Assembly: GCA_951406725.2 (NCBI GenBank)
Contig: OX597815.1
Location: 101,556,001 to 101,620,000 of the forward strand
Origin: Octopus vulgaris
Lineage: Eukaryota
DNA length: 64,000 nt
Direction: 5' to 3'
The notes below the pieces were generated by a model. That model saw only the letters and a program-made list of their open reading frames with translations, was not told the DNA's origin and ran no database searches. The translations under genes were made by a program, and so were the position numbers. Positions 1,100 to 64,000 of this stretch are shown in pieces; within the stretch, counting starts at the first letter, position 1; each line of letters begins with the position of its first letter.

Positions 1100-1865
1100 A
1101 GAAATTCATGACATTCACGTTTATATGTTTTATTTAGTAACTTTCTTTCTATGGTATCTCTCGAACGTAGGTGGAATCGAGTATGGGTTCTTCGCTCTTC
1201 TTGTTGCTATGTATACAAAGATGTGTTTGTGCAATCTTTCATGCTATATTTAGTTAGGCTTTTTTCCTGGTGAGGTGATATTCCAAATTTGGTTATTCTG
1301 CTAGCCGTAGAATTTCACATTTAGAACCATATTTATGATTGAGATCCATCTTGAAGGCATGATATTTCTTTACAAAATTAACATATAACATTTAGGTTTT
1401 TACACCATGCAGTGCATAGGGCGATTTCCCTGCAGATCTTACATTTGAGACTGGTGGAAACGTGATCATTGTCCAGAGGCATAAACATACTTATCAAAAC
1501 GCTATACTTATCTTTGACGTCCTCTTCTATAGCTTAACGGGTATATATATTCGTCTTTTAATACCGTACGACCAGGATATGTAAACACTTGTACAGTTTA
1601 CAGAAAATGCCAGCAACTCTGATATTTCTTCGATGCCATAGAGCTTGGCTGGAATAGTACTTTTTTAAAATTCTTTCCTTTAGGTCAAATATTTTAGATA
1701 TAGTGGAAAATGCATATACGACCGTCTGTGGATGATGAGTGATCAGCAACCTACCATCCGATACAGTGATTATGTTGCTAGAATTTTTATGTGTGGTAAT
1801 TTCGTTTTTGTTTTAAGATAGGCAATATTGAAGTTAGGCGGAGTTATATATACAGTTAGGTGGAG

Positions 1866-1933
<68 letters not shown>

Positions 1934-2870
1934 ATCCTAAAGATCGTGGAAAGCCTGCTCTAACCTTGCTGCAAGGATGATGGAGACAGTGTAGGTACCA
2001 GTACATACCCATGTTTCATACCATTTGTTCCAGCATATATATTGTGCGTTGTTGAGTGTAAGGACAACCATATTTCATCAATATCGAATTATTTAGTAAG
2101 GCCAACGCTTGCCATTTACAGGAACTTGTCCTGTTCTTTACATTTCACCTGCTGTAGCGAGAAACAGAATATTTTGCCTTCTATACTACAGATTTTTGGA
2201 AACTACTCGACATCTAATGTATCATTTCTTGAGTTATGTGGGCTCCGGGAGAATATTTTGTTTGTATTGATGGAAGTGAGCAGATGCTGAAAGTATTAAG
2301 TCCACCTCTTCCATATATTCCAAGTCTTTGAGAACAATCCGTTTTAATCAATTGATTTTCGTATGCTAAGGCTCTTTCTGTAGGGTTTCCTGATTTCTTC
2401 GAGCACGTCACAGAAGGCCTTCATGTTATTTTTTGCCCCCTTTTATCCTGCTGTTGTGTATAACGCAATCAATCACATGTTAATGAGTGGATCTTCTCTG
2501 TCTTGTGTTCAATTTTCGTTATTATGTTTGTAACTCTTAATCAAACTCGTTACAAAAAGCGAAAATATTCTTTGTCTATAGCTACAAGCCAGCTTTTATA
2601 GTCTTTCCCTATCCTTATATTGAAGGCTCCCATAAATAGTTTGACTGTGCCAAGTTCGTTGTGTAATCCATATGAGCTAATTGGTTGTAAAGTACTTTTT
2701 TGCCTTTATTGGAATTTGTTATAGTTTGGGCATACACAATAGTCTCGTAGTTATGATCCTTTTGTTTACTAATGTAGGCATTCCTGATTTTTTTCATTAC
2801 GTTCTTCCATATGGTGATTTCAACTGCTGATTCTCTTTTCAACTTCGGGCTTACCAGTCCAAAGTAATTT
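1100..2870 (-). mobile_element. Highly decayed Penelope-like element fragments, interrupted by (TA)n at 1867-1930
   Basis: The minus-strand peptide ...TIVYAQT...AQSNYLWE (2615-2842) resembles the 'VIYKAT...LSKYIWEL' stretch of Penelope GIY-YIG domains. There are many stops and frameshifts. Confidence 0.3.
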
Positions 2871-4960
2871 GAATTCTATATAGCTACACTTGCTCTAACG
2901 CTCCTCGTTTAATAACAACTAATTATAATTGTCTTTCATTTTAATTCTGTCTGCCTGTCTCTCTGTCTGTCTTAACCTCTCTCAGCTTCGTTAGATACTT
3001 ATTTTATTGAGATCGTAAACAGAAGAAAGGTTAAGACAACCTGATCCGCTATACATGGTATTTAGTCTTGTATGTATGTATGTATGCATGTACGTATGTA
3101 TGCATGTATGCATGCATGTATATTGTATGTCTATCTGTCTGTCCATCCGTGTGCATGTATGTACACATGTATATGTAGATGTATGTACGCATGCTTGTGT
3201 GTTTGCACATATATAAATATACTTTATATGCATTGAACACACACTTCCTTCATCTACTACTTACTATCGAGATTCACTTTTTTACTAGATAGTTAATGCC
3301 TTATTTTGTATTATTCTTTCTTGAGTTACCTTTTGATAGGCGACATGTTTCGTCAGATGCAATTCTGCGTTACAGTACTTGTAGAACCATGTGTAGCCTA
3401 AGGAACACATTTTTCTTTTCAAAGATAAAAGCATTGAATGACTTGATAATCGATTCAAGTTATATGAAAAATGGTAAGGCGGTGAGTGTCAATACATTGC
3501 AGGAATATTGATGGTTTCAGCCTCTCCTTTTGTATATAAAATATAACTCAATAAATGTGTCCTGTACAATTCAGATCAGTCAGTTACAGCAAGAAAAAAA
3601 AAAAAAAGAGAGACGGTTAGATTGTTAAAGCGTTTTTATATACTTGTGTCAATATTATATATATGTAATATGCTTTAAATAGTTATATGCGTTTATCATA
3701 ATACTTCTGAGACTGAGACGTTATATAAAAGCTTGTGAATGGACGTATGTTGGCACACTAAAATTTAACTCCCCTCGTGAGCTTCGTAAAATTAAATGAT
3801 CCTTTAACCAAGATAGCTCTGGTACTGCAGTCTACTGAGTGTCCCATCCGTTCTTTCCATGCTGGGATGTATATCGTCATATGTTACTATTATACTTTTG
3901 GGAGATCTAATCTGCCTCCCGTTTAAGCACAATTACCTGATCCTCTTTCATTAACGTTGACCTTGTTTCAAGCATTTGAATCATGTCTTTAGTTTGAGGG
4001 CAACTCTAACGACACAGTACGCTACAACCTGTGGGATTTTCTTCTCTTTTCCACCAGACCCAGAAGTCATGTGCAATCTGTATGACTAATTAAACCGTAA
4101 AATTTATTTATATTTTAATATACTTATCTTTAACTCGTGTTTAAATTATTTTGGATTTTATATTTTATTTTACGTATTATTTTCTATTCCATTGTCTATC
4201 CATTAAAACCTCAGCATGCAGTTGTCAGTTTGTCTACGTTACTTGAAGACTTAATTGTTCATTCTTACCAATTGTGGGTTGGATGAGATGCGGCCACTGT
4301 TGGGTGATTAGTCATGGCCATAGATAACTAAGTGGAATTTGAACTCACATCGCAAAGAGCCGAAACAGTCACAACATTGTATATAATCCGAGGCAAGCCC
4401 GCCAAATCATCGCCCCGGAGCATTAATATATTTATCAACACCGAAAGAATTAGAGACAAGATTGATCTCGGTGGGATTTTAACACAAAGCGCAGAGAATC
4501 TAAATTAATAATGCAAGGTATTTTAGTCAACTGTCTAAACAATCTGCCAATTTCCCGCCCTGTATATTTTAAACCATTATCAAAAACAAAAAAAGGTAGG
4601 GTAGTGTTTTAGTATATCTTATAACAATAGTTTTTTTTAATACTAATTATATAACCTCAAGGCAAAATGCTTAAATGCCACTCAAATACAAACTGCTTTG
4701 GTGAAACTGTAAACCTTACAAAATCTTAAGAATATTAAATTACTGTCACTATCCTTTTATTAAAACTTTTAAAAGGAATTTAGTTTTTCCAGCATCTGTA
4801 TAGCCCTTCACTAATCTTTGTATGTAGAACTCTGATTGCGCGCGAAGACACGTACTCACGCGCGCACACACACGATCGCGCGCGCAATTACACATACACA
4901 AAGGATCTATTGAAGACACAACTAAGTTCTAGCTGTATTTTTAATAGAACACTACTTTTC

Positions 4961-11504: not shown

Positions 11505-11584
11505 CACACACACGCACACACACACGTAAATGACCAACAATGAGAACGAGTGCTTGACACTGCATTAGTGGATATAATTTCTTA

Positions 11585-11775
11585 ATTTGTGCATTAAGGC
11601 CACCATTAGTTTCATATCAAGAAAATATCTTAATATTTTAACAGTTGTTCAACCCAATGACATGGAAGAATGGTCTTCATCTCCGTTTTGGATAAAATCT
11701 GATCGGCTTGAAAAATTCTTAAGATATTAAGATACTTCCTTAACATGAAACCAATGGAAGCTTTAATAGGCAAAT
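11585..11775. repeat. Imperfect foldback (MITE-like), arms ~70 bp
   Basis: ATTTGTGCATTAAGGC...TATCTTAATATTTTAA is mirrored by TTAAGATATTAAGATA...GCTTTAATAGGCAAAT. Confidence 0.7.
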
Positions 11776-11938
11776 AAAGTTTATCCTCCAATGCGGTGTT
11801 GAGCACTCATTGTCATTGTTCGACATTTACGTATCTTTCTTTCTTTCTCTCTCTCTTTCTCTCTCTCGCACATACACATGCCTACATACGCGTGGCCATC
11901 CAACCCTCTGTATATATATATATATGTATACATACATA

Positions 11939-13077: not shown

Positions 13078-13173
13078 TATAATAATAACAACAATATTAG
13101 GGAGTAAATCCAAACTTACAGGGAAAAATTAGATTTAGGATTAAACCTAATTTTACAGTATAAATATATATAT

Positions 13174-13330
13174 TTAATTAGAGATAAAACCACTATTAGG
13201 CAAATCAAACAGTGAAAAACATAAACCAAAACATAGAAAAAAATAAACCAAAACATAAAAAAAATTTTTTTCTATGTTTTGGTTTATGTTTTTCACTGTT
13301 TGATTTGCCTATTAGTGGTTTTATCTCTAA

Positions 13331-13334
<4 letters not shown>
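13174..13334. repeat. Near-perfect inverted repeat, ~70-bp arms, adjoining TA tracts
   Basis: 13174-13244 is the reverse complement of 13264-13334 with about one mismatch. The spacer is a partial duplicate of the arm. Confidence 0.9.
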
Positions 13335-13416
<82 letters not shown>

Positions 13417-16451: not shown

Positions 16452-16665
16452 GGTCTTTCAATATGTGACCTCGTGAGTACCGCTGGCGATTTTTATCCTC
16501 TGTCTTCCCTTCTTAGGATCTTTCCTTCTCCTATGTTTCCGACGAAGAGCTCCGCTCGAAACGTTAAACCCTCCTTCTTCCCTTCTTTCCTGAGCGTCCA
16601 ATAAAACTTTATTTGTTCCACGTCCTCGCGTTGTTGTGTTTTTTTTGTTTTCTTGTTTGGATTAA

Positions 16666-16670
<5 letters not shown>
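16452..16670 (+). mobile_element. ~210-bp non-coding HHR-bearing element (Penelope pLTR-like) between TA tracts; HHR at 16535-16569
   Basis: gttt-CCGACGA-a-GAGC tcc GCTC-GAAA-CG-TT-aaac. A homologous copy lies at 61271-61478 on the minus strand. Confidence 0.8.
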
Positions 16671-16729
<59 letters not shown>

Positions 16730-19994: not shown

Positions 19995-20145
19995 TTCTAT
20001 CTCTGTTTATTTCCTCGTGTTCTTTTCTGTCGAAGAGTGTAGGCTTGAAACGTAAAATACTTTCTCACCTTCCCGAGCGTCAAACTAATACACTGATTGT
20101 TGTTTATATACCTGCCTTCGTCTTTTGCTCTTCTGTACATTTATA
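19995..20145 (+). mobile_element. Short HHR-bearing element; HHR-like motif at 20024-20057 (CUGUCGA core)
   Basis: ttt-CTGTCGA-a-GAGT gta GGCTT-GAAA-CG-TA-aaa. A homologue lies at 33064-33272 (minus). Ends in (TA)n. Confidence 0.7.
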
Positions 20146-29802: not shown

Positions 29803-30611
29803 TATTATCGAGTTAGAAGACAGAAGGATACAACGGATACAAATTAATTTATTAATTAATGAACATATTCACCTACAATTGTTTCATTTCACAAACAAAA
29901 TTAAAATTACAAAACATATATAAATATATAATTTTGCATTTTAAATACCTTGTATGGAAAATCATCAAGGCGTACAAATACAAGGATTACATTAAGATAC
30001 GTTTGGAATAATCAGAATATAATAGACATGTCGGTATATTCGGAGTATTCCAAACGTATTTTAATGTAATCCTTGTATTGTTCTTTGTACACTCTGATCA
30101 TTTTCCATACAAGGTATTTAAAATGCAAAATTTTATACTTACCTCTGCCTTAGTGAAGGCAGAGGTATTGTTTTCACTCGTCTTTGTTTGTTTGTCCGTG
30201 GAAAGGATATCTCAAGAACCGTTGGATGGATTTGGACGAGACTTTCAAGGATGTTTGACCTCATGACTGGCACGAACCGTTTAGATTTCGGGATCGATCC
30301 GGTACCGGACAAGGATTCTGGATTATTTTAGCTGTCTTGTTACTTAATTTTTGAAAGTAGTCGGGATCATTTTTAGTATTCTCGTTTGTGAGAGCAGTCG
30401 AATTTATTTCAGATATTCTCATTTTAAAAATCATCTCTGGCTAATCGTTGAGAGGACGTTGGTGTTGTCTTGGCAGAGGTTTGCGCTCTCTCTGTGATCT
30501 TGTTATATATGTTTTGCAATTTTAATTTTGTTTGTGAGATAAAACAATTATATGTTAAATAATAAATTAGTTTGTATCCATTAGATCTCTCTGTTTTCTA
30601 ACTCGATAATA
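29803..30611. mobile_element. Foldback of two inverted HHR-bearing arms (~210 bp each); right arm interrupted; HHR-like motif at 29870-29972 (minus)
   Basis: 29803-30020 is mirrored by 30036-30138 plus 30505-30611. The left arm minus strand reads cgcc-TTGATGA-ttttcc...gaaat-GAAA-CAATTG-TA-ggtg; the right arm has CTGATCA at the core. Confidence 0.75.
30139..30504 (+). mobile_element. Helentron-associated non-autonomous element (HINE/DINE-1-like)
   Basis: 5' inverted repeat TACCTCTGCCTT/AAGGCAGAGGTA, then (GTTT)n, and a 3' subterminal copy GGCAGAGGT at 30472-30480. TT at both ends. It cleanly interrupts the foldback arm. Confidence 0.75.
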
Positions 30612-30914: not shown

Positions 30915-30983
30915 CTCTCTTGCTATCTTACTTGTTTCAGTCATTTGGTTGCAGCCATGCTGGAGCACCGCTTTTAGTTAGAC
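30915..30983 (-). mobile_element. LINE-type 3' tail shared with SINE family B, fused to the 5S copy
   Basis: Minus strand reads ...ACTAAAAGCGGTGCTCCAGCATGGCTGCAACCAAATGACTGAAACAAGTAAG. Confidence 0.85.
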
Positions 30984-31101
30984 GCTTACAGGACCTTGGT
31001 TTCCCAAGCGGTCACCCATCTAAGTACTCATTAGGATCAACGTTGCTTGACTTCGGTGATCGGACGAGAACCGGTGCTATCAAGGTGATATGGCCGTAGG
31101 C
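30984..31101 (-). pseudogene. 5S rRNA: Full-length diverged 5S rRNA copy (retrocopy or head of a 5S-derived SINE)
   Basis: GCCTACGGCCATATCACCTTGATAGCACCGGTTCTCGTCCGATCACCGAAGTCAAGCAACG...AGTACTTAGATGGGTGACCGCTTGGGAAACCAAGGTCCTGTAAGC, 118 nt. Helix I ends pair; box A and box C are recognisable; there is no oligo-T terminator. Confidence 0.92.
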
Positions 31102-38269: not shown

Positions 38270-41200
38270 TGAATGATATTCAAAAAGTAAACAAAACCGA
38301 AATAACGAAGAAAATACCGTCATGGGTTTTCAAGACAGAGGAAAAGATAACTGGTTTACGGATGACCATCAGTCATGTAATGATGCTTATTGCATGCAAG
38401 CAAGCAAATCACTATACGTCCCACCAACAGAAAGTAAAGAAGGAGGTAGAAATGATGTTTGGAGACAGCAAAAAGAGGACACCCACAAACAGATTACCCT
38501 CAAGCAGGAGCTAAAAGCTGTCAGTGAAAAACTCTGACATCAGAAGAGAAAAGCTGAGAGAACAATAAGCAAACAGTTTAACCGCAACCAGGCAGCAGTA
38601 TACAGAGACATGAAAGGAGGAGCAGTAAACATCACTGAAGCTCCTTCACGAGAAAACATAGACTCCTGGAGGAAAATCTGGAGTGAAGAGAAGGAATTTA
38701 ACCAAGACGCTCTGTGGCTGGAAGAAATCCAAAAAAGTTATTGCTCCTGCATTACATCGAAGGCATACAAGATTGATGGTGAAACTCTTGCAACAATGAT
38801 CCAGAAACTCCAGGGTGGAAAAGCACCTGGAAGAGACTTGATTGCTGGATATTGGTACACGAAGCTAACATTCTACCGACCACATCTTATCAATCTGTAC
38901 CAGCAAGCGTTCATTGGGAACAGTGGGATACCATACTGGTTAGCTCTGGCAGAGACAAAATTGATCTCCAAATGCAGAACCACTTATATGGCAAAAAACT
39001 ACTGGTTAATTGTATGCCAGAATTTAATGTATAAGATATATACAGCATGTTTAAACTTCTTCTTACTGGACCATTGTGAAACCAGTAACATTATCATAGT
39101 AGAACAAGAAGCTGGGAAGAAGGGGTCCTGGGGATGTGCTGAGAAATTGTTAATCAACAAAACTGTGATGCCAGAGGTGCGAGAGCATGGGAGGAACCTA
39201 GTGTCAATGTGGCTAGACTACAAGAAAGCCTTTGATTCTGTTCCCAACTCATGGATGCTAGAAGCCCTTCAACATGCTATGGTTCCAATGATAATTATCA
39301 AAGTCATACATTACCTGACTTCATCATGGGCCACCATCTTGAAATTAAACATAAAGAGCGACTGTATTATCAATCGATAGAATACAGTATCGCCAAGGCA
39401 TATTCCAAGAGTACAGCCTCTCTGTAATGTTGTTTATACTTTCCGCAAACCCCTAGTCATTCATGTTAAGGAAGTCTGAAGGATATCTCACTGGTTCACG
39501 AGTAAACAGAAATACCAAAATTACACGCTATTTCTTTGTGGATGACTTAAAACTTTATGCATAGAATATGCATGAGATGAAAATGAGCCTTGACCTAGCT
39601 ACAACATTCTCAAAAGATGTAGGATTGGAGTTTGGTCAGGATAAATGTTGTTATATGTATGTGAAAAGAGGGAAAACTATAAACCAGACTGGTAACAGCT
39701 CTATGAATGATTTGACTGTTTCCCCTGATCTGACGAGGAATATTACAGGTATCTAGAGGTGGATGAAAATATATCTTACAGTGGCACCTGTAACAAAACA
39801 CGTGTCACTAAAGAATATTACAGCCGAATAAAGAAAATTTGGACCTCAGAACTCTCAATAAAACAGCGGCCCACAATGTGTTTGCAGTATTAGTACTCAT
39901 ACCAACATCTGGGCTGTTTGAACAATTGATGAGATCCGAGCCATTGATGTGAAAACCCGAAAAATACTAACAAGCACACATAATTTCCACATAACAGTGA
40001 ACAAGACCGCCTCTATTTAAAACGAAAAAAGGAGGAAGAGGCTTAAAATCAATCCCAAAAGCCTTTGAATGTCGCATCATATCCCTTCAGCAACATCTTT
40101 TAACCAACAAGTGTCGAAGTGCGTCCCTTGACCAAGTTGCATACATGAAGTTAATTACATCATAAGACTTGGAATGCAGCTCCTTGAGCAACACTCTTTG
40201 TCTGATAACCTAGAATACATGCCCAAAAAAGTAACACGACTCTACAGCAACGTATCATCAGATGAAAGGATGAACCTATATCAAAAGAAGACATGCATGG
40301 ATATGATACTAGAAAGCTTCGTGATGATAGTAACATCGATCATCAAAGCAGTTTATCGTGGACGAATAGCCGGATTACTACCTCCCACATAGAAGGGTAT
40401 GTGTTTGCAATCCAGGAACAGGAAATATCTACCAAGTACCTGATGAACAAAAGGGACAGAGATGCAGATAAAGCCGTAAAGTGTGACAACTTATGCAGAC
40501 TTTGTAGTGTTCACACTGAAGATATCACCCACATCATAAGCAGTTGTTCGAAAATGTCATCAGGGTGTTATCTACCGATGAGACATGACGTTGTAGCTAG
40601 GAACTCTATAATGAAATTCATCGGAAGGATAATCCTAAGGACAAAGAAATAAGAAGCCACATTATGGTAGAAGCTATAGTCACTCATAATAAAAAGGAAT
40701 ACTGATGGAATGTACCAGAGAAGACCTCAATAAAATGTAAGCACAACATACCTGATATAATGATTTGGGATTAGAGAATAGATACTGTGCACAGTTGTGC
40801 AGATTAGCTGCACAGCAGATGTTAACTTAAAGCTGAGGATCAATGAAAAAGAGAATACCTATGCTGAACTCTTGAGAAATCTGCAGTTACCCTATCCTGA
40901 TTACAAGTTCAGGTTTATACCTGTAATTATTGGGGCCCTGGGATACGTAACATACTGCCTAAATTATCAATCTTGAGAAATTATGCTTCTCAAAACCAGA
41001 AAGGAGAAGGCTAATTCGAAGTCTACAGATCCATTCCATCGCTGGAACTGTAAAAATCTGTAAAACTTTCCAGAAGTTTTTCATTTAAATATATATGAGC
41101 ATGTCTAGATATGCAACTATATGCATGAGAATACACACATAAAACATACAAGTCTGCACATACATACTTACAAATCTGCACATGCATACATACATGCATA

Positions 41201-48816: not shown

Positions 48817-49071
48817 AATACATATATACATATATATTCTTTTATTCTTTTATTTTGTTTCAGTCAACTGGAGCACCGGCTTTTAGTCGTAGAAATCGAC
48901 CCCTGGTCTTAATGTTTGTAAGACTTGGTGCTTATTCTATCGGTCTATTTTTCCGAACCGCTAAGTTACGAAGATGTAAACACACTAACACCAGTTGTCA
49001 AGCGATGGTGGGGGGACAAATACAGACTTAAACAAACACACATAAATATATATACATGTGTGTGTGTGTAT

Positions 49072-49579
49072 AAATTAACAGAATGAGATAAAAACCCAAG
49101 GATGTAAAGATTTAAGAACGTTTATAAATAGAAGGTCTTACAGCTGTTTTCGGGATATTTTATATATCCTTTCATCGAAGACGGTGTGAGAAAATGGATA
49201 AGCAATAGTTATTTTAGATAAGATATGAAATAGAGGAGGAATGAAAATACATTAGGCAGAATGGTATACATATAAGATTCCTCTACCTTAAATACTATTG
49301 GAACTTAATTACAAGGTACAGGAATGTTATATATATACCATTCTGCCTAAATAATGGAACTGAAGATGCAATATCCCTGCATATCTCACATGCATTTTCA
49401 TTCCTCCACTTCCCTCTCTATTTCATATCTTATCTAGAATAACTATTGCTTATCCGTTTTCTCACACCGTCTCCGATGAAGGAATATATAAAATATCCAG
49501 GAAACAGCCGTAAGACCTTCTATTTACAATTGTTCTGGAATCTTTACAGCCTTGGATTTTTATCTCATTCTGTTAATTT
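49072..49579. mobile_element. Foldback element with an HHR motif in each arm (49135-49182 minus; 49469-49516 plus)
   Basis: Imperfect inverted arms of ~220 bp. The plus arm reads gtct-CCGATGA-a-GGA(A)TAT...ATATCC-ag-GAAA-CAGCCG-TA-agac; the minus arm has stem III CAGCTG. Confidence 0.85.
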
Positions 49580-49768
49580 TTATATATATACACATGCTGA
49601 TATATGACCTATGTTGAACTCCTCATTCGCATAATCACCAAACCTAGAGCATAACTATAGTCTGTCCATAGCACTTACTCAGCATTACCTGATACATTTG
49701 GGTCTTCTTGACACCATTACCTTTCATAACCTATATATAATATATATATATATATACACATACATACA

Positions 49769-49969: not shown

Positions 49970-50183
49970 CAATAATAATTCTCTAAACGAGATATAGACA
50001 GTAACTGCTCCATAACATAAGGGACGTTAGCCATCTGAATGTGGCTAGGGACAGGGCAGGGCGGTGGGGGTGTTACTGATGCATTTAGCCCCAGGCGATC
50101 ATCAACGTCACCAGGAGGGCTGACGCCATCACGGCGTCCTCTAGCCTGCAAAGGGAGATCATTCCCCGAAGAAGCGGATGCCA

Positions 50184-50228
50184 CATACGGACCTAGGTTT
50201 CAAGGTGTTTGCCTATTATCAACGTATG
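50184..50228 (-). ncRNA. Minimal type I hammerhead motif, U3-A8 variant; predicted cleavage after GUC (between 50190 and 50189)
   Basis: catacg-TTGATAA-t-AGG caaaca CCT-t-GAAA-CCTAGG-TC-cgtatg. Confidence 0.8.
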
Positions 50229-50749
50229 GCAGGCACCGCTCCTCGACGAACGACTCTCTGTGCAGGCTATATATAAAGATTTTCACAGTAAATACATTTA
50301 CTGATGTAGAAAATCTGTTCGACAGCAATAATAATTCTCTAAACGAGATATAGACAGTAACTGCTCCATAACATAAGGGACGTTAGCCATCTGAATGTGG
50401 CTAGGGACAGGGCAGGGCGGTGGGGGTGTTACTGATGCATTTAGCTCCAGGCGATCAGCAACGTCACCAGGAGGGCTGACGCCATCACGGCGTCCTCTAG
50501 CCTGCAAAGGGAGATCATTCCCCGAAGAATGTATGGCAGGCATCAGTAACACCCCCACCGCCCTGCCCTGTCCCTAGCCACATTCAGATGGCTAACGTCC
50601 CTTATGTTATGGAGCAGTTGCTGTCTATATCTCGTTTAGAGAATTATTATTGCTGTCGAACAGATTTTCTACATCAGTAAATGTATTTACTGTGAAAATC
50701 TTTATATATAGCCTGCACAGAGAGTCGTTCGTCGAGGAGCGGTGCCTGC

Positions 50750-50794
50750 CATACGTTGATAATAGGCAAACACCTTGAAACCTAGGTCCGTATG
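50750..50794 (+). ncRNA. Same hammerhead motif in the inverted copy; predicted cleavage after 50788
   Basis: Identical sequence to the minus strand of 50184-50228. Confidence 0.8.
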
Positions 50795-50962
50795 TGGCAT
50801 CCGCTTCTTCGGGGAATGATCTCCCTTTGCAGGCTAGAGGACGCCGTGATGGCGTCAGCCCTCCTGGTGACGTTGATGATCGCCTGGGGCTAAATGCATC
50901 AGTAACACCCCCACCGCCCTGCCCTGTCTCTAGCCACATTCAGATGGCTAACGTCCCTTATG

Positions 50963-51000
<38 letters not shown>

Positions 51001-54994: not shown

Positions 54995-55045
<51 letters not shown>

Positions 55046-55399
55046 GTCCGTCAGTGGCCCACGCTGGCGTGTGCTGTCAGAAAATCAAGTCTTAGAGCAT
55101 ACGAAATAGTAGACGATGGGGTGAAGGAGTTGGTTACCAAGTCAAAACTTGACGAGCGTATTTAATACCTCATTCAATGCAGACTGCATTTAAAGCTTAA
55201 GGATCATGAAAATGCTTTTATCTATATTCCCGAATACAGGTTAATAAATCTCATGAAAACTGAGCCAGGTATAGCTAGCAAGCATATATCAGATTATTAT
55301 TAAACCCAGTTTTAAAACGATAGGATACTAGCAGCATCAGTTTTAAGAAGTTTAATAAGTCTCAGCAATAAACCAAGTTGCAGGTTTCGATCATGGAGT

Positions 55400-55570
55400 T
55401 TTATCGTCTGCCTTTATGTACTAAGTTCAAATTCCGCCGAGGTCGACTTTGCCTGTCATCCTTACGGAGTTGATAAGATAAGTATCAGTTAAAACAGGGG
55501 ATTGATTACATCGACTTAAACCCGCCATCGAGATTGCTGGCCTCGTGCCAAAAATTGCAACCAATATTAA
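55400..55570 (+). mobile_element. Old family A SINE fragment
   Basis: GTTCAAATTCCGCCGAGGTCGACTTTGCCTGTCATCC core. Confidence 0.75.
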
Positions 55571-55791
55571 ATTTAAATAATCTAGATATAACTTTAATTC
55601 TTAATAACGATAAAAATATTATCCACCTCATAAATCAGAAAGGTCATGTTTAAAATAACCATCTCAGACTCTAAAATTAATTTCTTTTTCAATTCACGCG
55701 GTGAAAAAAGGGTATAATTTGTGATATGATTAAAAAAAAGGCAAAATATATTTGAAATGGGATTGAAGGGGAAAAAGGTGTCTTCTTCTTC

Positions 55792-55823
<32 letters not shown>

Positions 55824-57049
55824 CTTCTTCTTCTTCTTCGTCTTCTTCTTCTTCTTCTTCTTCTTCTTCTTCTTCTTCTTCTTCTCTTCCTCCTCCTCCT
55901 CCTCCTCTTCCTCCTTTCTCGATCTCTCTCTAACCTCATCAAATCGTGTCACGCTGATTCGATCTGATACTTACATTAATAGCACACGCATCTGAGGAAT
56001 ACTGAACCATTTGCACGTCAATATCACGAGTAGGAAGGAATTCAGTTGATCCACCACCTGACTGCTCATCGTCGAAACTGATGGAGAATCCATCGCTTAT
56101 GAAATCATGGAATTATGTAGAATCTGCTACTGGTAAAGTCAAACCGGGAAATCAGTTAACGGGACTTTGATGACAGTCTTACATAAGTTCAGTTTTGAAT
56201 TACTCCACTTTATTCATTATTCTATAAATATCATCAATTGTAATTTGACATATGTTATTAAGTCTTGCAACTTTAGTACGAAACTACTCTCATGAGTACA
56301 ATCACACGTGTTTTACAGATTTTAAGACGACTATAAATGGGAGTAGGGCAATATATATACACGAAGTTCTGATTGCCATCTTAGTTCACCCAATGCTATC
56401 AGCTGAAATTGGTTGTGTTTTATTACATGAATTAAAAAAGCGTTATTTTAAACTTTGAATCTGAATATTCTTTATAAAGTAATTACTTCATTATGCTATT
56501 TCATCTCGTCTGTAAAATGTCTACGCAGTACACTACGTATCTTTTTCATTGCACGCAATTACACAACTAGATACACATTTCCTACGGTTCGTCCTAATAA
56601 GCACAATCCTGTTTCTTTAAAAATAGGACCAGGCTCTTGAATAGGAGGCCTCCTCAAGGACAACGACTGCAACAACACAACGACGACATCAATAACAAAC
56701 ACAACAGCGACCACAACAACTGCTGTAATAGCATTAACATGAATGAGCCACCAAAGGGCGAAGTGGTCATAGTTCAAATGTGTTTTGACCCATGACCTGA
56801 TCAAAATGTTTGCTTGGTGTAAACATATTCAATAAGAACAAAAACAGCGTTAATAATAGCAGCAACAGCGATACCACCACCACCACCACCACCACCGCCG
56901 CCGCCGCAGCCGCCGCGCTGCCACCACCACCACTACTGACAACAAAGACAACAAACAACATCTTCAACAACTGTAGCAGCAACAACAACGGCGGCGAAGA
57001 CAATAACGACATCAGAAACATCCAAAGAAAGCATACTCATCACTCATCA

Positions 57050-57660
57050 CACAAACACACTCCCTACATCCATGTGGGGTTGGCAGAAAGAAGCCTCTTC
57101 CAGTGAACAACCTTAGCCATCAAGAAAATAAAATACATAGTTTTTCACAACTAAAACTGACATATCTGCTACACTCGATGTAATAGCCGAACGAAAGCAC
57201 GCACATTCCACATACATATACACACAAGCTCACACACACACACACAAACTGTAGATGTATACCTTATAAGTGTCCACATAAAATTCTAAACATCCCCTCA
57301 CTAACATATCTCAGACATCAACAGGCAGTAACAAACACTACACAGGCACATTCCAAGCACACTGGCCAGACTCAGAACCTTGTACTTACCATTCTCCCGC
57401 TCTAGATATCAACACAAACGATCAAACACTACCCAGGCATAGCCTAATCAAATTCGCCAAACCATATAAATCAAAACAGACATTTGTTACACTATCCTCT
57501 CTGTAAGGCGCCTACGCACGACACCACACACAAACCTACCCTTTTAGATACCCATTTCCTATGTACCGTCCCTGAAGACGCAGCCCAGTTTCTTAATAGG
57601 AATAATCCGTCCGTGAGTGGAGGGGGTAGGAGAGGGTACCCTCAAGGCCAACAGCAAGAA
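57050..57660 (+). mobile_element. Decayed LINE 3' region (I/Jockey-like zinc-knuckle end)
   Basis: TLARLRT...PLCKAPTHDTTH..PTLL..FLCTVPEDAAQFL resembles LINE C-termini of the form LA.LR.G...CP.C...HDT.H...LW..P...A.FL. Confidence 0.45.
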
Positions 57661-58468
57661 AAGGCTAATTTCGGTTTAATTCCAAACAACGTTTAACGCA
57701 CACGAAAAAAAAAAAATGAGTGTACAGTAAAATATATAAAAGTTTTTCGGTAAAAGAATGAAAAATTCAACGTTTCCAATAAATTGTCTTTGTGTATGGA
57801 TAAGTATCAGAAATATTGCGGTTTTCAATCTTTCTGGCAACTCGTTTTATTATCTACGAACTTTTATTGATAAGCTGTTGTATATTTACATGAGATTCCG
57901 AATATAAAATATGTTTGTAATATAGAATATTGGTTAGACGTGGAGTATTTGTTCTCTGCGGTCAGAATACAAATCCCGGTGAGGCCAACTTCGTAATCCA
58001 TTCTTCTGGCGCTAATATGCATCAATTCTGGTGGTAGTTTGGCGGAATTGTTAGAGCGTAGGACATGTTATCCTGTTGTTCCGGTTCTCTGAGTTCTGAC
58101 AGCAACGACTACAAGATTATCAGTGTCAAGTTGCAACGTTCTGACCTTTCTCTTGTACACTATTGCTGGCGTGAAAACGGATGACTTGCATGCATGGAAA
58201 ACCACATACAATATTTGTTATATATGAATCTAGAGTGTTACCCGTCATGTGACGGGTAAATTTACATGTATTTTTTTTTCAACAAAGAATATTTTGATAA
58301 AAGATAGATTATATTATTGTATTTATGTCATTTTTCTTGATTTTACCTATAGTGACACAAGTATGTATGTTAATATTATTGTAACAATTGTAGTGATACA
58401 TTCATTTAGAACAATTTACAATAAATTCCTAATCGATTTTTTAGAATATATATATATATACATATATA

Positions 58469-58880
58469 CCAATTCTACTATATGGCTCAGAAACCTGGAC
58501 GTTATCAAAGAAGCTTGAGAGGCGGTTGGATGGAACCTACACTCGCCTCCTTATGAGAGCTCAAAATCTCTCGTGGAAGCGTCATCCAACCAAAATGCAA
58601 ATATATGGGAAACTATCACCTTTGTCATCTCTTGTGAAAGGTAGGAGAGTCCAGTTTGCTGGACATTGTTGTAGAGCTGAAAACGAAGCAATTTCTACTC
58701 TTCTCCTCTGGAAGCCATCTACTCGCGATACCAGAGGGCGCACACTCTCCTACCCTGATGTAATCTCCAGGGATACAGGCATCTAGCAACAGGACCTCCG
58801 TAATGCTATGATGGACCGTGAAGTCTGGCGTAGCATGGTAAATTCCATTGTCTCGACCACGGTCGAACAATGATGATGAT
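58469..58880 (+). mobile_element. RTE-superfamily LINE 3' end with (TGA)n tail
   Basis: ILLYGSETWTLSKKLERRLDGTYTRLL...RRVQFAGHCCR...MMDREVWR, with one in-frame stop, ending in TGATGATGAT. Inserted in TA-rich repeats. Confidence 0.9.
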
Positions 58881-58905
58881 ATATACATGTATATGTGTAT
58901 ATATG

Positions 58906-58958
<53 letters not shown>

Positions 58959-59869
58959 ATATGTGTCTGTGTGTATGTATATATATATATATATCAGCGC
59001 AAGCTTGTCTATGTGGTGTTGGTCTTAGTCCTTGTCCACTACTGACAACAAAGACAACAAACAACATGTCTTCAAGTATAGCTCCAATGCCTCGTAAGTG
59101 AACTTGGTTGACAGTAACTGTGCAGAAACCCGTCATATAAATATGTATATATGTATGTCTTTGTGTTTTCGTTAGTCTCCCATTGCTTGGCAACCGGCGT
59201 TGGTTTGTGTCCGTCTTCATATCTTACAGGTTCGGTAAAAGAGACCGATAAAATAAGTAACAGAATTCAAAAAGAAAAAGATATATATTATAGTTGATTT
59301 GTTCGACTCAAACCATCAAGTTATCGCCCCAGCATGGTTGCAGTCCAATGACTGATACATGATATATTACATATAAATAATAGATATATAATATACATAT
59401 CTATATAAATTACACTCACGCACACACACGCACATGCACATCAATAATTAAAAACACTGCGCGTGGATAAGCTAGGTTTAAGAAACTTGGTTTTGACAAA
59501 TATTTTAGCCTCGCAGTGAAAACTATATTTCCTTACTGCCATTATTAATTTATTAATTCACATTGTCAATGCTTGTACGGATATGTAAATTAGACACGCC
59601 AGAGTTTCTCTATACTATAAATAGCAATTATATATTTTCTGTTCTCTGGATGTGAATATTTGATGAAGCTGTAATATACACTGAAACTAATTAGATCTCT
59701 CTCTTTCGTTTTTCTCAACAGAGAGGGAAAGAGAAAAAGAGAAAAAAACATTATTTCATCCACAGGTCGAATTTTCACTATCCAACTCAAATGTATGTTT
59801 ACTAAAAACACACACTACATAGTTGATCTGTTTCTGTTTTAATAACTATCCATGTGTGTATATAATCTT

Positions 59870-60132
59870 TTACACGTTTCAGTCATTTGACTGCAGCCAT
59901 GCTGGAGCATCGCCTCATATGGTTTCAGTCGAAGTAATCGATACTTAATCTATCGGACATAAACACACCAACATCGGTGTGGACAAACACACACACATAC
60001 ACATATATATAGACGGGATTCTTTCAGTTTCCGCTATCAAATCCACTCACAATGTTTTGGTCGACCTGAGGCTACAGAAGAAGACTCTTGCCCAACGTGC
60101 TACGTAGTCGGACTGAATCCGGAATCATGTGC
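59870..60132 (-). mobile_element. Family B SINE, internally deleted
   Basis: Tail GTTTCAGTCATTTGACTGCAGCCATGCTGGAGCA plus head-side homology. Confidence 0.8.
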
Positions 60133-60357
60133 TCCAGATTTGTTGTCTATGAACTCTTGCGAGCTATAATGGCTCTTAGCTGAATGTCTTTTCGTTGTAG
60201 TAGGTTTGTATATTCACAACCTTGTTCCTTTATAACGTCTTTGTTTGTGTTTCCATTATTGAAATGTGTTGATAATTTGCCATATATATATATATATATG
60301 TGTATGTATATATATATATGTATATATATGTATATATATATAGCAATTAAGGACAAC

Positions 60358-60477
60358 TACTTAATAAGGAAAACTTAACAAGAAATTGTCAGGTAGATAG
60401 CGTAAGAACCTCATAAGTACTTAATAAGGAAAACTTAACAAGAAATTGTCAGGTAGATAGCGTAAGAACCTCATAAG
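60358..60477 (+). repeat. Exact 60-bp tandem duplication
   Basis: 60358-60417 is identical to 60418-60477. Confidence 0.95.
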
Positions 60478-60667
60478 AGAAAAAAATTCGAAAATAATTA
60501 TTTCTTATTGAATATATTAATTTATATATAGAGGGCATTATATACATGCCAAACGCTAAGAGGGACAATTAGAAAATAATTATTTCTTATTGGAGATATA
60601 CTCGCATTATACATACATGCCAACGTAAGAGGGACAATTAGTGATCTACCAAGTTTCATGTGACTAT

Positions 60668-60699
<32 letters not shown>

Positions 60700-60812
60700 G
60701 CAGAGATATATGGAAGTATATATGTTATATATATATATATATATAAAGGAGATATATAGGAGATGTACTCGCATAGCAAGTAATTTGATCTCACGTGTGC
60801 TCAACAATTCAC

Positions 60813-61077
60813 TGGAAGGTGTTTTAAGCCATTTAAGAAACGCACAAAACCGTTCGATTCAGTTTAATTTGTCAAAATATTTTCGTCGCTAAAATCCGCG
60901 ACCTGTTCACTGACAAAAATCCGTGCTGCATCTCAGCACTGGGATGCAGCACGGATTTTTGTCAGTGAACAGGTCGCGGATTTTAGCGACGAAAATATTT
61001 TGACAAATTAAACTTAAATGTTGAAGTGAATCGAACGGCTTTTGTGCGTTTCTTAAATGGTTTATAAACACCTTCCA
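60813..61077. mobile_element. Near-perfect palindrome carrying two G3-C8 hammerhead motifs (60868-60917 minus; 60958-61007 plus)
   Basis: Hairpin centred on 60937-60938. Motif: tttgtca-GTGAACA-g-GTCGC ggatttta GCGAC-GAAA-ATAT-TT-tgacaaa. Confidence 0.85.
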
Positions 61078-61088
61078 CGCTGCAATTG

Positions 61089-61153
<65 letters not shown>

Positions 61154-61209
61154 AATATCACCCAGTTGCTGTTACATATAGCTGTGTGTGCTATATATAT
61201 ATATATATA

Positions 61210-61270
<61 letters not shown>

Positions 61271-61274
<4 letters not shown>

Positions 61275-61478
61275 TAATCCAAACAAGAAAGCAGAAAAAA
61301 CACAGCAACGCGAGGACGTGTAACAAATATAGTATCATTGGACGCTCAGGAAAGACGGAAAGAAGGACGGCTTAACGTTTCGAGCGGAGCTCTTCGTCGG
61401 AAACATAGGAGAAGGAAAGATCCAGAGAAGGGAAGACAGAGGAAAAAAATCGCCAACGGTACACACGAGGTCACATAC
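61271..61478 (-). mobile_element. Second copy of the 16452-16670 HHR element; HHR at 61370-61404
   Basis: The core CCGACGAAGAGCTCCGCTCGAAACGTTAA is identical to 16539-16567, while the flanks have diverged. Confidence 0.85.
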
Positions 61479-62047
61479 AAATGCACACACACACACACAC
61501 ACACGCACACACACTCACACACACACATACACACACACACACACACACACTGGCACTCCATCGATTACAACGAAGGGGCTTCCTGTTGATCCGATCAATT
61601 GATCAACCTGTTCGTTCAGTTAATATGCGATAGCAGGGCACTCTACACGTTTGATTCAGTGTGACAAGGTTGGCTCTTTGAAATACAGGTACAACTAATT
61701 TATTTCAGTTGGTTGGACTGGAACAACATGAAATAAACGTCTTGCTCAAAGATACAACGTGTCACGAGAAATCGAACTCACGACCTTAGGATCTTGAGCT
61801 GAATACCCTAACCACTTAGCCAAGTGCGCACATATATATTCTAATATCATGACCTTATGATTGATAGCCAGTTGATTATCCACAAGGACAATCGCATTCT
61901 TCCATTTTTTGCTCTCCTACCACTTTTTCCCACTCCAGCTCTCCCTCTTCTTCTTCTTCTTCTTCTTCTTCTTCTTCTTCTTCTTCTTCTTCTTCTTCTT
62001 CTTCTTCTTCTTCTTCTTCTTCTCTCTCTCTCTCTCTCTCTCTCTAT

Positions 62048-62144
<97 letters not shown>

Positions 62145-62368
62145 TGTGTGTGTATGTATAGGTGTTTGACTTAAGGCTTATGGTGTTGACCTCATGAGCA
62201 CATTGTCCCCGTCAGCAAAGACACTATATTTCACGTTGCCGTAGTTGAGGATACACAGTCACTTAAAACAAATAGCAAAACTACGGTACATGCTACCAAG
62301 TCATACAATGTTGCAAATGATGGCTGCAGTGTGTAGTGTGTACCTGTGTCTGTGTATGCGCTCGTGTG

Positions 62369-62429
<61 letters not shown>

Positions 62430-62702
62430 ACAATTATGTGTTTTAGAGCCATTTTAGCTCTTATTTCTTGCATTGTAGGTGTTTCTAATACCCTAGTCTC
62501 ATTTAGTGAGAGGTATAGTTTGCCTTTTTCGTAAAACATTTCATATTGCTGTCTATTTCAATATTATTTATGTATGTATGTATGTATGTATGTATGTATG
62601 TATGTATGTATGTATGTACGGATGGATGCATGCATGCATGTATGTACGTATGTATCAATCTGTCTGTCTGTCTGACTATCTATCTATCTATCTATCTATC
62701 TG

Positions 62703-62760
<58 letters not shown>

Positions 62761-64000
62761 CGAACAGCTACATACGCACACATGCGCACACATGCCCACA
62801 CATGCACGAGTTATACAAACACACACATACACATACACGCACACACACGCACACACATACACACGCGCACACGTAATTTTTAGTACCGAGAATGTGCGTC
62901 ACCGTTAAAAGGCTAGAAAACAGAAAACACTGATCTAAAAGTCCGATGGTAGTCGTTGACACCATTGACATATTAGTTACAGATGACACAGCAGTGTTGT
63001 CTTAAGAGTTATCATCACTTCCATTAGGCACTGATAGTGAGAAACAGCTATTAAGAAATAAATATCTAACATATTGTTTTAACAATGTCTGTATTTTATC
63101 GTTAAAGACTCACTGTATTCACCAAAGTCATTGATAACAAGGCAACAGATTTTTCTCTTAACCTTCACCCTTTATTTACACTTTATAGCCGTAAATTCCC
63201 AAAATAGCCTGCGGTGCAGTTAACTGTGCTTCTTAATGGCTTATCAAATCTTTGAGCTATATGATAAAAGCTGTTGTGAGTCTTTCAGATTTTTAGTTTA
63301 CCTCTCCCTGAAAAAAAAGCACAAAAAAAAAACAAAAAAAAAAAAAACTCAAACTATAACTGATAAGGATGTAAGAATATATGTGTGTTGTAGTAAAATA
63401 ATGTATGTACAGATGTATATACATATGGAATATATGTACTTAATATATATATTTGTAGATGTAAGTTTGTATGGATCATCACTCCTATGAAGTGGGCACA
63501 AAATTAGCCTGTATTCGTATGCACAAATATCCTACATTCAATTACACAAACGCACGCACTAAGACTTATCGATAAATCCACTCCTTTATTTCATACATAA
63601 ATAATGCATGTGCACATCCATACAAGATTTAATATGTAAAGCATGGCAGAATTATTTAACATGTCGCATGTACACATACAAACAATAAACATATAAATAC
63701 GCATGTCTCAGATTCAATTGATTAATAATTTTTTCGCTTGTGGTATTTAGTATTATCTTAACCTCTTAATTATTAATCCAAATCCATGTCGTTAGCCTAA
63801 TTGAGTTATTTCTCATAGCTCATTTTCTTTTCTTTTTAATTATTCAAATTATAGTAACTCAAAATTAGTCATTACTTTTTTAGCTTGAGTAGACAAAACT
63901 TGATTAAACTTGAGTAGACAAAACATTAGAATAATTGGCAAGACCATATTTTGTAAGATGTAAATTTTGTAAGATTTACTGCGTAAATATCAACTTCCTA

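Follow-up and report, generated by a model that had tools for sequence, protein, structure and literature searches.

Penelope-like elements (PLEs) carry minimal type I hammerheads that are marked by a base between positions 9 and 10.1, a G10.1-C11.1 pair and a palindromic helix III, and that occur as pairs on opposite strands 100–700 bp apart (Cervera and de la Pena 2014, PMC4209133). These motifs are weak ribozymes even when dimeric (PMC4209133). PLE insertions have been described with strong 5′ truncation, an inverted 5′-truncated copy next to the 5′ end, a tail of 30–40 bp on one side and (TA)n targets, and one listed element, Penelope-13_HM, bears a hammerhead on each strand (Craig et al. 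2021, PMC8557442). The hammerhead descriptors in the methods of that study begin from CUGANGA. The hammerhead of an anole PLE cleaves only with its protein: the C3G or G8C changes singly abolish cleavage which is partly restored by the double change, mutation of the hammerhead leaves in vitro insertion unaffected, and RNA-seq revealed no ends mapping to the cut site (Frangieh et al., PMC11167929). The C3G/G8C exchange that the original prediction cited as the classic compensatory test of the 3-8 pair is indeed described as such (PMC11167929; review PMC8495972). Natural covariation at positions 3 and 8 in the literature searched is confined to U3-A8 (PMC3088659, PMC4209133), with G3-C8 represented only by engineered molecules. 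Non-LTR retrozymes are non-coding repeats with type I hammerheads for which a PLE origin has been proposed, and are arranged as head-to-tail tandem repeats with hammerheads of the same sense (bioRxiv 10.64898/2026.07.22.740005). A hammerhead survey of octopods was not found in the literature searched.

The DNA analyzed here is a stretch of 64,000 nucleotides from Octopus vulgaris, termed the window, which is non-coding, AT-rich and rich in microsatellites. An inverted repeat at 60858–60936 and 60939–61017 consists of 79-nt arms that are 97% complementary with a spacing of 2 nt, in agreement with the near-perfect palindrome with a 2-nt loop that had been proposed for this locus. Homology between the arms continues outward to 60804 on the left and to 61089 on the right. 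The right arm (60939–61089, plus strand) corresponds to the 3′ terminus of a family of PLE-like repeats, is 5′-truncated at the center of the palindrome and ends against (TA)n; its 13-nt segment past the hammerhead matches the loose ends of contigs of the family. The left arm (60804–60936, minus strand) was identified by repeat comparison and from family contigs as the same 3′ terminus in inverted orientation; relative to the right arm, 13 nt are missing at 60861 and smaller indels are present. The center (60934–60941, with the loop at 60937–60938) is not family sequence as judged from the contigs. A one-sided, high-copy extension of ~45–50 nt lies beyond the left arm (60755–60803, minus strand), and its depth is comparable in magnitude to that of the 3′ part of the element. 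Runs of (TA)n that are the putative target are located at 60726–60745 on the left and at 61092–61150 on the right. Both copies of the element are truncated ~25 nt upstream of stem I. Repeat comparison revealed no further copies of the element elsewhere in the window, and no reverse transcriptase (RT) or GIY-YIG gene is linked at the locus, as none of the 90 open reading frames that were scanned (190 listed) reached the Pfam cut-off. A 60-nt tandem duplication with 98% identity (60355–60474) is situated upstream of the palindrome.

Descriptor matching and folding place a type I hammerhead layout at 60958–61007 on the plus strand with a predicted cut after 61000. Stem I (60958–60964/61001–61007) comprises seven Watson-Crick pairs and is followed by the core GUGAACA (60965–60971) in which G3 is 60965, C8 is 60970 and A9 is 60971. 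An extra G at 60972 separates A9 from G10.1. Stem II is a helix of 5 bp (60973–60977/60986–60990) that is capped by loop II (60978–60985) and includes the G10.1-C11.1 pair (G 60973-C 60990). The G12A13A14 triplet (60991–60993), the palindromic AAUAUU (60994–60999) and U17 (61000) complete the motif. A second, letter-identical layout was matched by the descriptor on the minus strand (60868–60917) with G3 at 60910, C8 at 60905 and U17 at 60875, and the family variation described below was read on this copy. The original prediction of a 7-bp stem I, a GUGAACA core, a 5-bp stem II, GAAA and U17, with the same layout in both arms, is accurate in all of these elements, apart from the extra G at 60972 that its listing of the core left out. 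The U4, G5, A6, A9, G12, A13, A14, A15.1-U16.1 and H17 positions all match the type I hammerhead. In both arms, as in the family, G3 and C8 take the place of the consensus letters C3 and G8 of CUGANGA, and hence the motif is classed as a hammerhead variant and not as a plain member. A Watson-Crick G-C pair between positions 3 and 8 is possible by sequence. The remaining nine core letters and the G10.1-C11.1 pair are canonical, so that the only two changed letters are the pairing partners 3 and 8. Other core registers that restore C3 or G8 were rejected as, by eye, none retains both stems. Contact between loops I and II is not evident by eye, and one subfamily has a different loop II.

The frequency with which such a layout arises by chance was assessed with a PLE-type descriptor in block-wise dinucleotide shuffles of the whole window on both strands. 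A G3-C8 match with at least 6 bp in stem I and at least 5 bp in stem II was given by none of 1,783 shuffled windows, and a looser setting (at least 4 bp in each stem) produced a single match in 1,783 shuffles.

The motif in the palindrome possesses all three of the marks of PLE minimal hammerheads and shares with these ribozymes the type I topology, U17, disposition as opposite-strand pairs, and high copy number (PMC4209133). The palindromic helix III with a 2-nt center, which AAUAUU exemplifies, is that of the Drosophila virilis type (PMC4209133). Thus, a free-standing new ribozyme family, as initially envisaged, is not what the locus contains: the motif bears the published PLE marks and in all likelihood descends from a PLE-type hammerhead. 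The difference resides in position 3. Among 56 aligned PLE examples counted by eye, 53 have C3, three have U3 and none has G3, although the descriptor used in that study selected for a canonical core (PMC4209133). The original prediction, which called UUU normally a poor triplet, did not consider that U17 is common in this group, with 24 of the 56 examples, also by eye, and that UUU is found in the oyster row (PMC4209133). PLEs of the Hydra clade that target (TA)n share this target and the location of a hammerhead near to the 3′ end, and several rows of the corresponding hammerhead table carry a G at the extra position like that at 60972, whereas 34 of 34 rows start with CUGA, unlike GUGA here (PMC8557442). 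Three motifs of the element in the palindrome are absent from the supplement text of that study, in which long runs are shortened. Engineered C3G/G8C molecules have the same swapped pair, but are laboratory mutants and not the natural state of a family (PMC11167929; PMC8495972). Hammerheads with U3-A8 likewise show natural 3-8 covariation, and one such family is present in the window (PMC3088659; PMC4209133). Compared with U3-A8, the G3-C8 pair reverses purine and pyrimidine and places C at the position with the catalytic 2′-OH. Identity with the non-LTR retrozymes was considered and rejected because the palindrome is an inverted pair, in contrast to the tandem arrangement of the former, and the window contains no other copy.

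A natural G3-C8 hammerhead was not found in the text of the literature searched, a scope that lies outside the 2017 survey of PLE variants by Lunse, Weinberg and Breaker which could contain it. Neither was one found in the available text of PMC6765202, PMC6155905, PMC2837043, PMC2920678, PMC10085705 or PMC13282606. Rfam reported no hammerhead among the 40 matches at E ≤ 5 in 55000–64000 and none at the gathering score in the whole window, which accords with the expectation that standard searches miss the motif. However, Rfam also misses the other hammerhead-like tails in the window and the omission therefore cannot be ascribed to the swap alone.

Part of the stretch is contained in 20 of 24 listed public sequencing runs that derive from 13 studies and bear five organism labels; RNA runs were absent among the runs listed. 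Four runs with four organism labels were compared using the left arm and flank (60748–60950) at 80% likeness, with differences counted from 2%. The numbers of aligned contigs were 3,656, 2,010, 2,895, and 1,317, counts that take in contigs on the left extension and whose summed depth is not a copy number. No substitution reached 2% at the core positions, G3 and C8 included, in any of the four runs, bearing in mind that contigs prove presence and not absence and that rare variants are dropped from contigs. Substitutions at or above 2% occurred at five of eight loop II sites and at one of the 42 hammerhead sites elsewhere (Fisher p = 1.5e-4), with the reservation that the sites are not independent. 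Within 60891–60910 the corresponding values were five of seven loop II sites and one of 13 others (p = 0.007). The sole substituted hammerhead site beyond the loop is a CpG in stem II, and a one-base deletion is listed in family contigs for the U run that lies outermost in stem I. The 16 positions of flank 60918–60933 also are devoid of listed substitutions. Thus, of the conservation that had been anticipated for the core, greater constancy than loop II is evident, but constancy beyond that of this equally invariant flank is not. The loose ends in all four runs disclose a subfamily in which the same arms of stem II enclose another loop II, as well as a stem I change that would preserve pairing as U-G. 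Overall, the proposal of a family with a swapped core fits these data, as G3-C8 is the family state in 1,317–3,656 contigs per run and, as read from these sequences, very probably prevails throughout the family. A scan of metagenomes with the full motif gave no matches. Matching of a 15-mer in metagenomes yielded at least 120 loci, none of which aligned beyond 31 bases among the matches listed, and these are dismissed as chance matches. In viral contigs, a G3-C8 pattern and a C3/C8 control each gave at least 120 matches, mostly attributable to chance; among the matches listed neither pattern had an example with at least 3 bp in stem II and at least 4 bp in stem I, and a more permissive filter retained two for G3-C8 versus none for the control.

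The doubling of the element was considered separately. At 60933 the family contigs part from the sequence of the window and continue differently, and therefore the center of the palindrome is not part of the family. A second opposite-strand joint with a different breakpoint (60890/60935) is present in three of the four runs. Both arms share one base just downstream of stem I for which the loose ends of the family read another, which implies that the arms arose from one template or were homogenized. Accordingly, the identity of the two arms does not serve as a sign of conservation: the center and the shared base are private, and both arms have one origin. Only the left end has the extension, and both ends are at or near (TA)n. 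The extension is probably the optional tail of a PLE or else a piece of another repeat; no contig of the four runs covers 60944–60950, and none covers 60797–60803 so as to bridge extension and arm, such that its designation as a tail is an inferred one. An inverted 5′-truncated copy adjoining at the 5′ end and a (TA)n target, two features of PLE insertions, are both found here, and the palindrome is ordinary PLE insertion anatomy.

The palindrome is one of several repeats of related build in the window, in which ten hammerhead-like copies belong to five families. None of the ten copies has CUGANGA, and the 3-8 pairs are C-G, U-A, and G-C. The four other tail families are of the same build and end 108–254 nt from (TA)n. 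The first is a larger inverted, partly tandem repeat on both strands (50012–50966) with U3-A8 cores at 50222 (minus) and 50756 (plus), an extra base, an 8-nt palindromic helix III, and a GUC triplet. It has a 46-nt extension at the left end only and both ends are at (TA)n; the repeat is a textbook case of PLE-type insertion that carries U3-A8, a variant already known. A further family bears the U4C change, with the core CCGACGA in both copies (16462–16725, plus strand, core at 16539; 61215–61477, minus strand, core at 61400). These copies are 93.6% alike and the tail ends at (TA)n; the second is located ~140 bases from the palindrome. The A6U change is present in both copies of a tail family at 20027 (plus) and 33195 (minus) that shares the ends of stem II and helix III with the U4C family. 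Each arm of a palindrome at 49046–49605 contains a hammerhead-like motif (cores at 49178, minus, and 49473, plus) with C at position 4 and a palindromic helix III, and the palindrome ends at (TA)n. Altered 3-8 pairs thus are found in two families of the window, and both remain Watson-Crick (U-A and G-C). Palindromic repeats at 11524–11832, 13159–13350, and 29921–30141 lie beside microsatellites without a hammerhead match, and probably are the same kind of inverted insertion in shortened or decayed form. A match to 5S rRNA at 30983–31101 (minus strand; 87 bits versus a cut-off of 38) is a candidate dispersed 5S copy or head of a 5S-derived repeat. Weak Pfam matches to RVT_1 and zf-RVT below the cut-off at 38538–40649 (plus strand) probably mark a decayed LINE that is unrelated to the palindrome.

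In folding predictions the isolated motif forms stems I and II (z = −3.1 and −3.6) with pair probabilities of 0.7–1.0. The AAUAUU sequence is palindromic as had been claimed, but an intramolecular stem III has a pair probability of 0.0 and does not form within one molecule; only an intermolecular A-U helix of 6 bp is possible. The modeled active dimer has an energy of −28.8 kcal/mol compared to 2 × −14.1 kcal/mol for two monomers, or 2 × −15.4 kcal/mol when the monomers are trapped by a G3-U17 wobble. As the dimer is about level with two monomers, activity is expected to be low. The predicted pairing of position 17 with G3 is 0.98 for C17, 0.67 for U17, and 0 for A17. Competition from downstream sequence lowers the probability of stem I to about 0.3 when the right arm is folded as a whole. 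The 13-nt downstream segment of the family is able to base-pair with helix III and the cleavage site (60994–61026, plus strand), a pairing that is possibly an off-state according to the models. RNA that reads through the palindrome is predicted to fold with −209 kcal/mol and a probability of 0.0 for both stems I and II: either strand carries one antisense copy and read-through RNA therefore buries the hammerhead. A hairpin with its own antisense implies that the copy at the locus is predicted to be silent and, on the modeled structures, this copy cannot dimerize with the partner arm, the latter being antisense.

The explanation that is considered probable on balance is a single insertion of a PLE family in which two 5′-truncated 3′ ends were joined head to head inside a (TA)n tract, with a family-wide G3-C8 hammerhead that is weakly self-cleaving in the source elements. 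In those elements the motif would cut after U17 (61000), and would do so only when two same-sense copies pair via AAUAUU. The RT-endonuclease protein of the element probably would aid the reaction as reported for the anole PLE. The copy at the locus would be a silent by-product of insertion whose read-through transcript forms a long hairpin. UUU is a slow cleavage triplet, and its poor character may follow from the 3-8 swap: U17 would be favored over C17 as a G3-C17 pair would lock the site. Since U17 is common in the PLE group anyway, selection of U17 over C17 is advanced as a hypothesis. A C3-G17 trap has been described which the predicted G3-C17 pairing mirrors, and a G3-C8 variant is stated there, as data not shown, to work better with G17 than with C17 (PMC3884650). 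The G3-U17 wobble, still predicted at 0.67, speaks against activity. Cleavage that is measurable in a dimer or protein-assisted format is about an even prospect. That this is a natural reversed-pair (G3-C8) hammerhead at work in a high-copy animal retroelement, with position 17 kept off C, is a tentative proposition that is more readily doubted than accepted.

The same PLE origin is compatible with a ribozyme that is dead: its core would have drifted in a source element for which cleavage had ceased to matter, and the stems would have been retained as a signal for protein binding or folding or simply copied from few masters. Continued pairing of positions 3 and 8 then would be luck, estimated as roughly one in four given two changes. 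This explanation is viewed as unlikely, yet it is a serious rival in light of the U3-A8, U4C, and A6U cores in neighboring families: CUGANGA is missing from all ten window copies in the five families, and U4C, common to two copies that are 93% alike, and A6U, common to two others, are uncompensated. The weakness of PLE minimal hammerheads even when dimeric (PMC4209133), insertion by the anole protein in vitro without cleavage and the lack of RNA-seq ends at its cut site (PMC11167929), and the predicted G3-U17 trap are in keeping with loss of function. Nevertheless, the changes are confined to the pairing letters, with the nine other core letters and G10.1-C11.1 canonical. Furthermore, a subfamily has swapped loop II and yet no core change reaches 2%, and both window families with a changed 3-8 pair kept it Watson-Crick (U-A and G-C).

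The remaining explanations dispense with the hammerhead or with the repeat itself. A DNA transposon of the foldback or MITE type, with inverted repeats that are hammerhead-like by chance, would account for a short, non-coding, near-perfect palindrome that adjoins TA runs and has no linked RT, but is very unlikely given the absence of a chance match in 1,783 shuffled windows. Moreover, the contigs diverge at 60933 and the other inverted joint has a different breakpoint, and the outer ends are unequal with the extension on one side, such that the fixed, equal terminal repeats and the shared interior of such a transposon are not seen. It is highly improbable that the long hairpin is itself the working product, as a dsRNA, small-RNA precursor or editing substrate, with the hammerhead incidental. 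The read-through fold of −209 kcal/mol and weak matches to microRNA models, for example mir-802 at 43.8 bits, are in its favor, but the latter match is far below the family cut-off of 86 bits and any perfect hairpin scores in this manner. As the center is not family sequence, the hairpin is specific to this locus. Fold-back during assembly might produce inner arms that are nearly identical, as these are; an artifact of this type is scarcely credible, however, when the arms differ by the 13-nt indel, small indels and substitutions, the flanks differ, five other diverged palindromes are present in the window, and the motif recurs in thousands of public contigs.

The principal novelty is a high-copy animal family in which, as far as the sequences indicate, a natural G3-C8 swap appears to be fixed, U3-A8 being the only natural 3-8 covariation in the text of the literature searched. 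C3 and G8 are built into the search patterns for PLE hammerheads (CUGANGA, PMC8557442), and a family that is fixed for G3-C8 implies that searches based on CUGANGA miss whole repeat families. The finding touches on the role of PLE hammerheads, given that in vitro insertion proceeds without cleavage (PMC11167929). Cleavage by the swapped core would mean that selection has kept the 3-8 pair; if the core does not cut, PLE tails would retain the fold for another purpose. Were a working reversed pair to hold true, thousands of copies would amount to mutagenesis of the hammerhead core by nature and would directly test the need of PLEs for cleavage. Descriptor-based counts of animal hammerheads then would be too low, and the PLE tails of this genome, as exemplified by the copies in the window, would use C-G, U-A, and G-C at positions 3 and 8, none with the textbook core.
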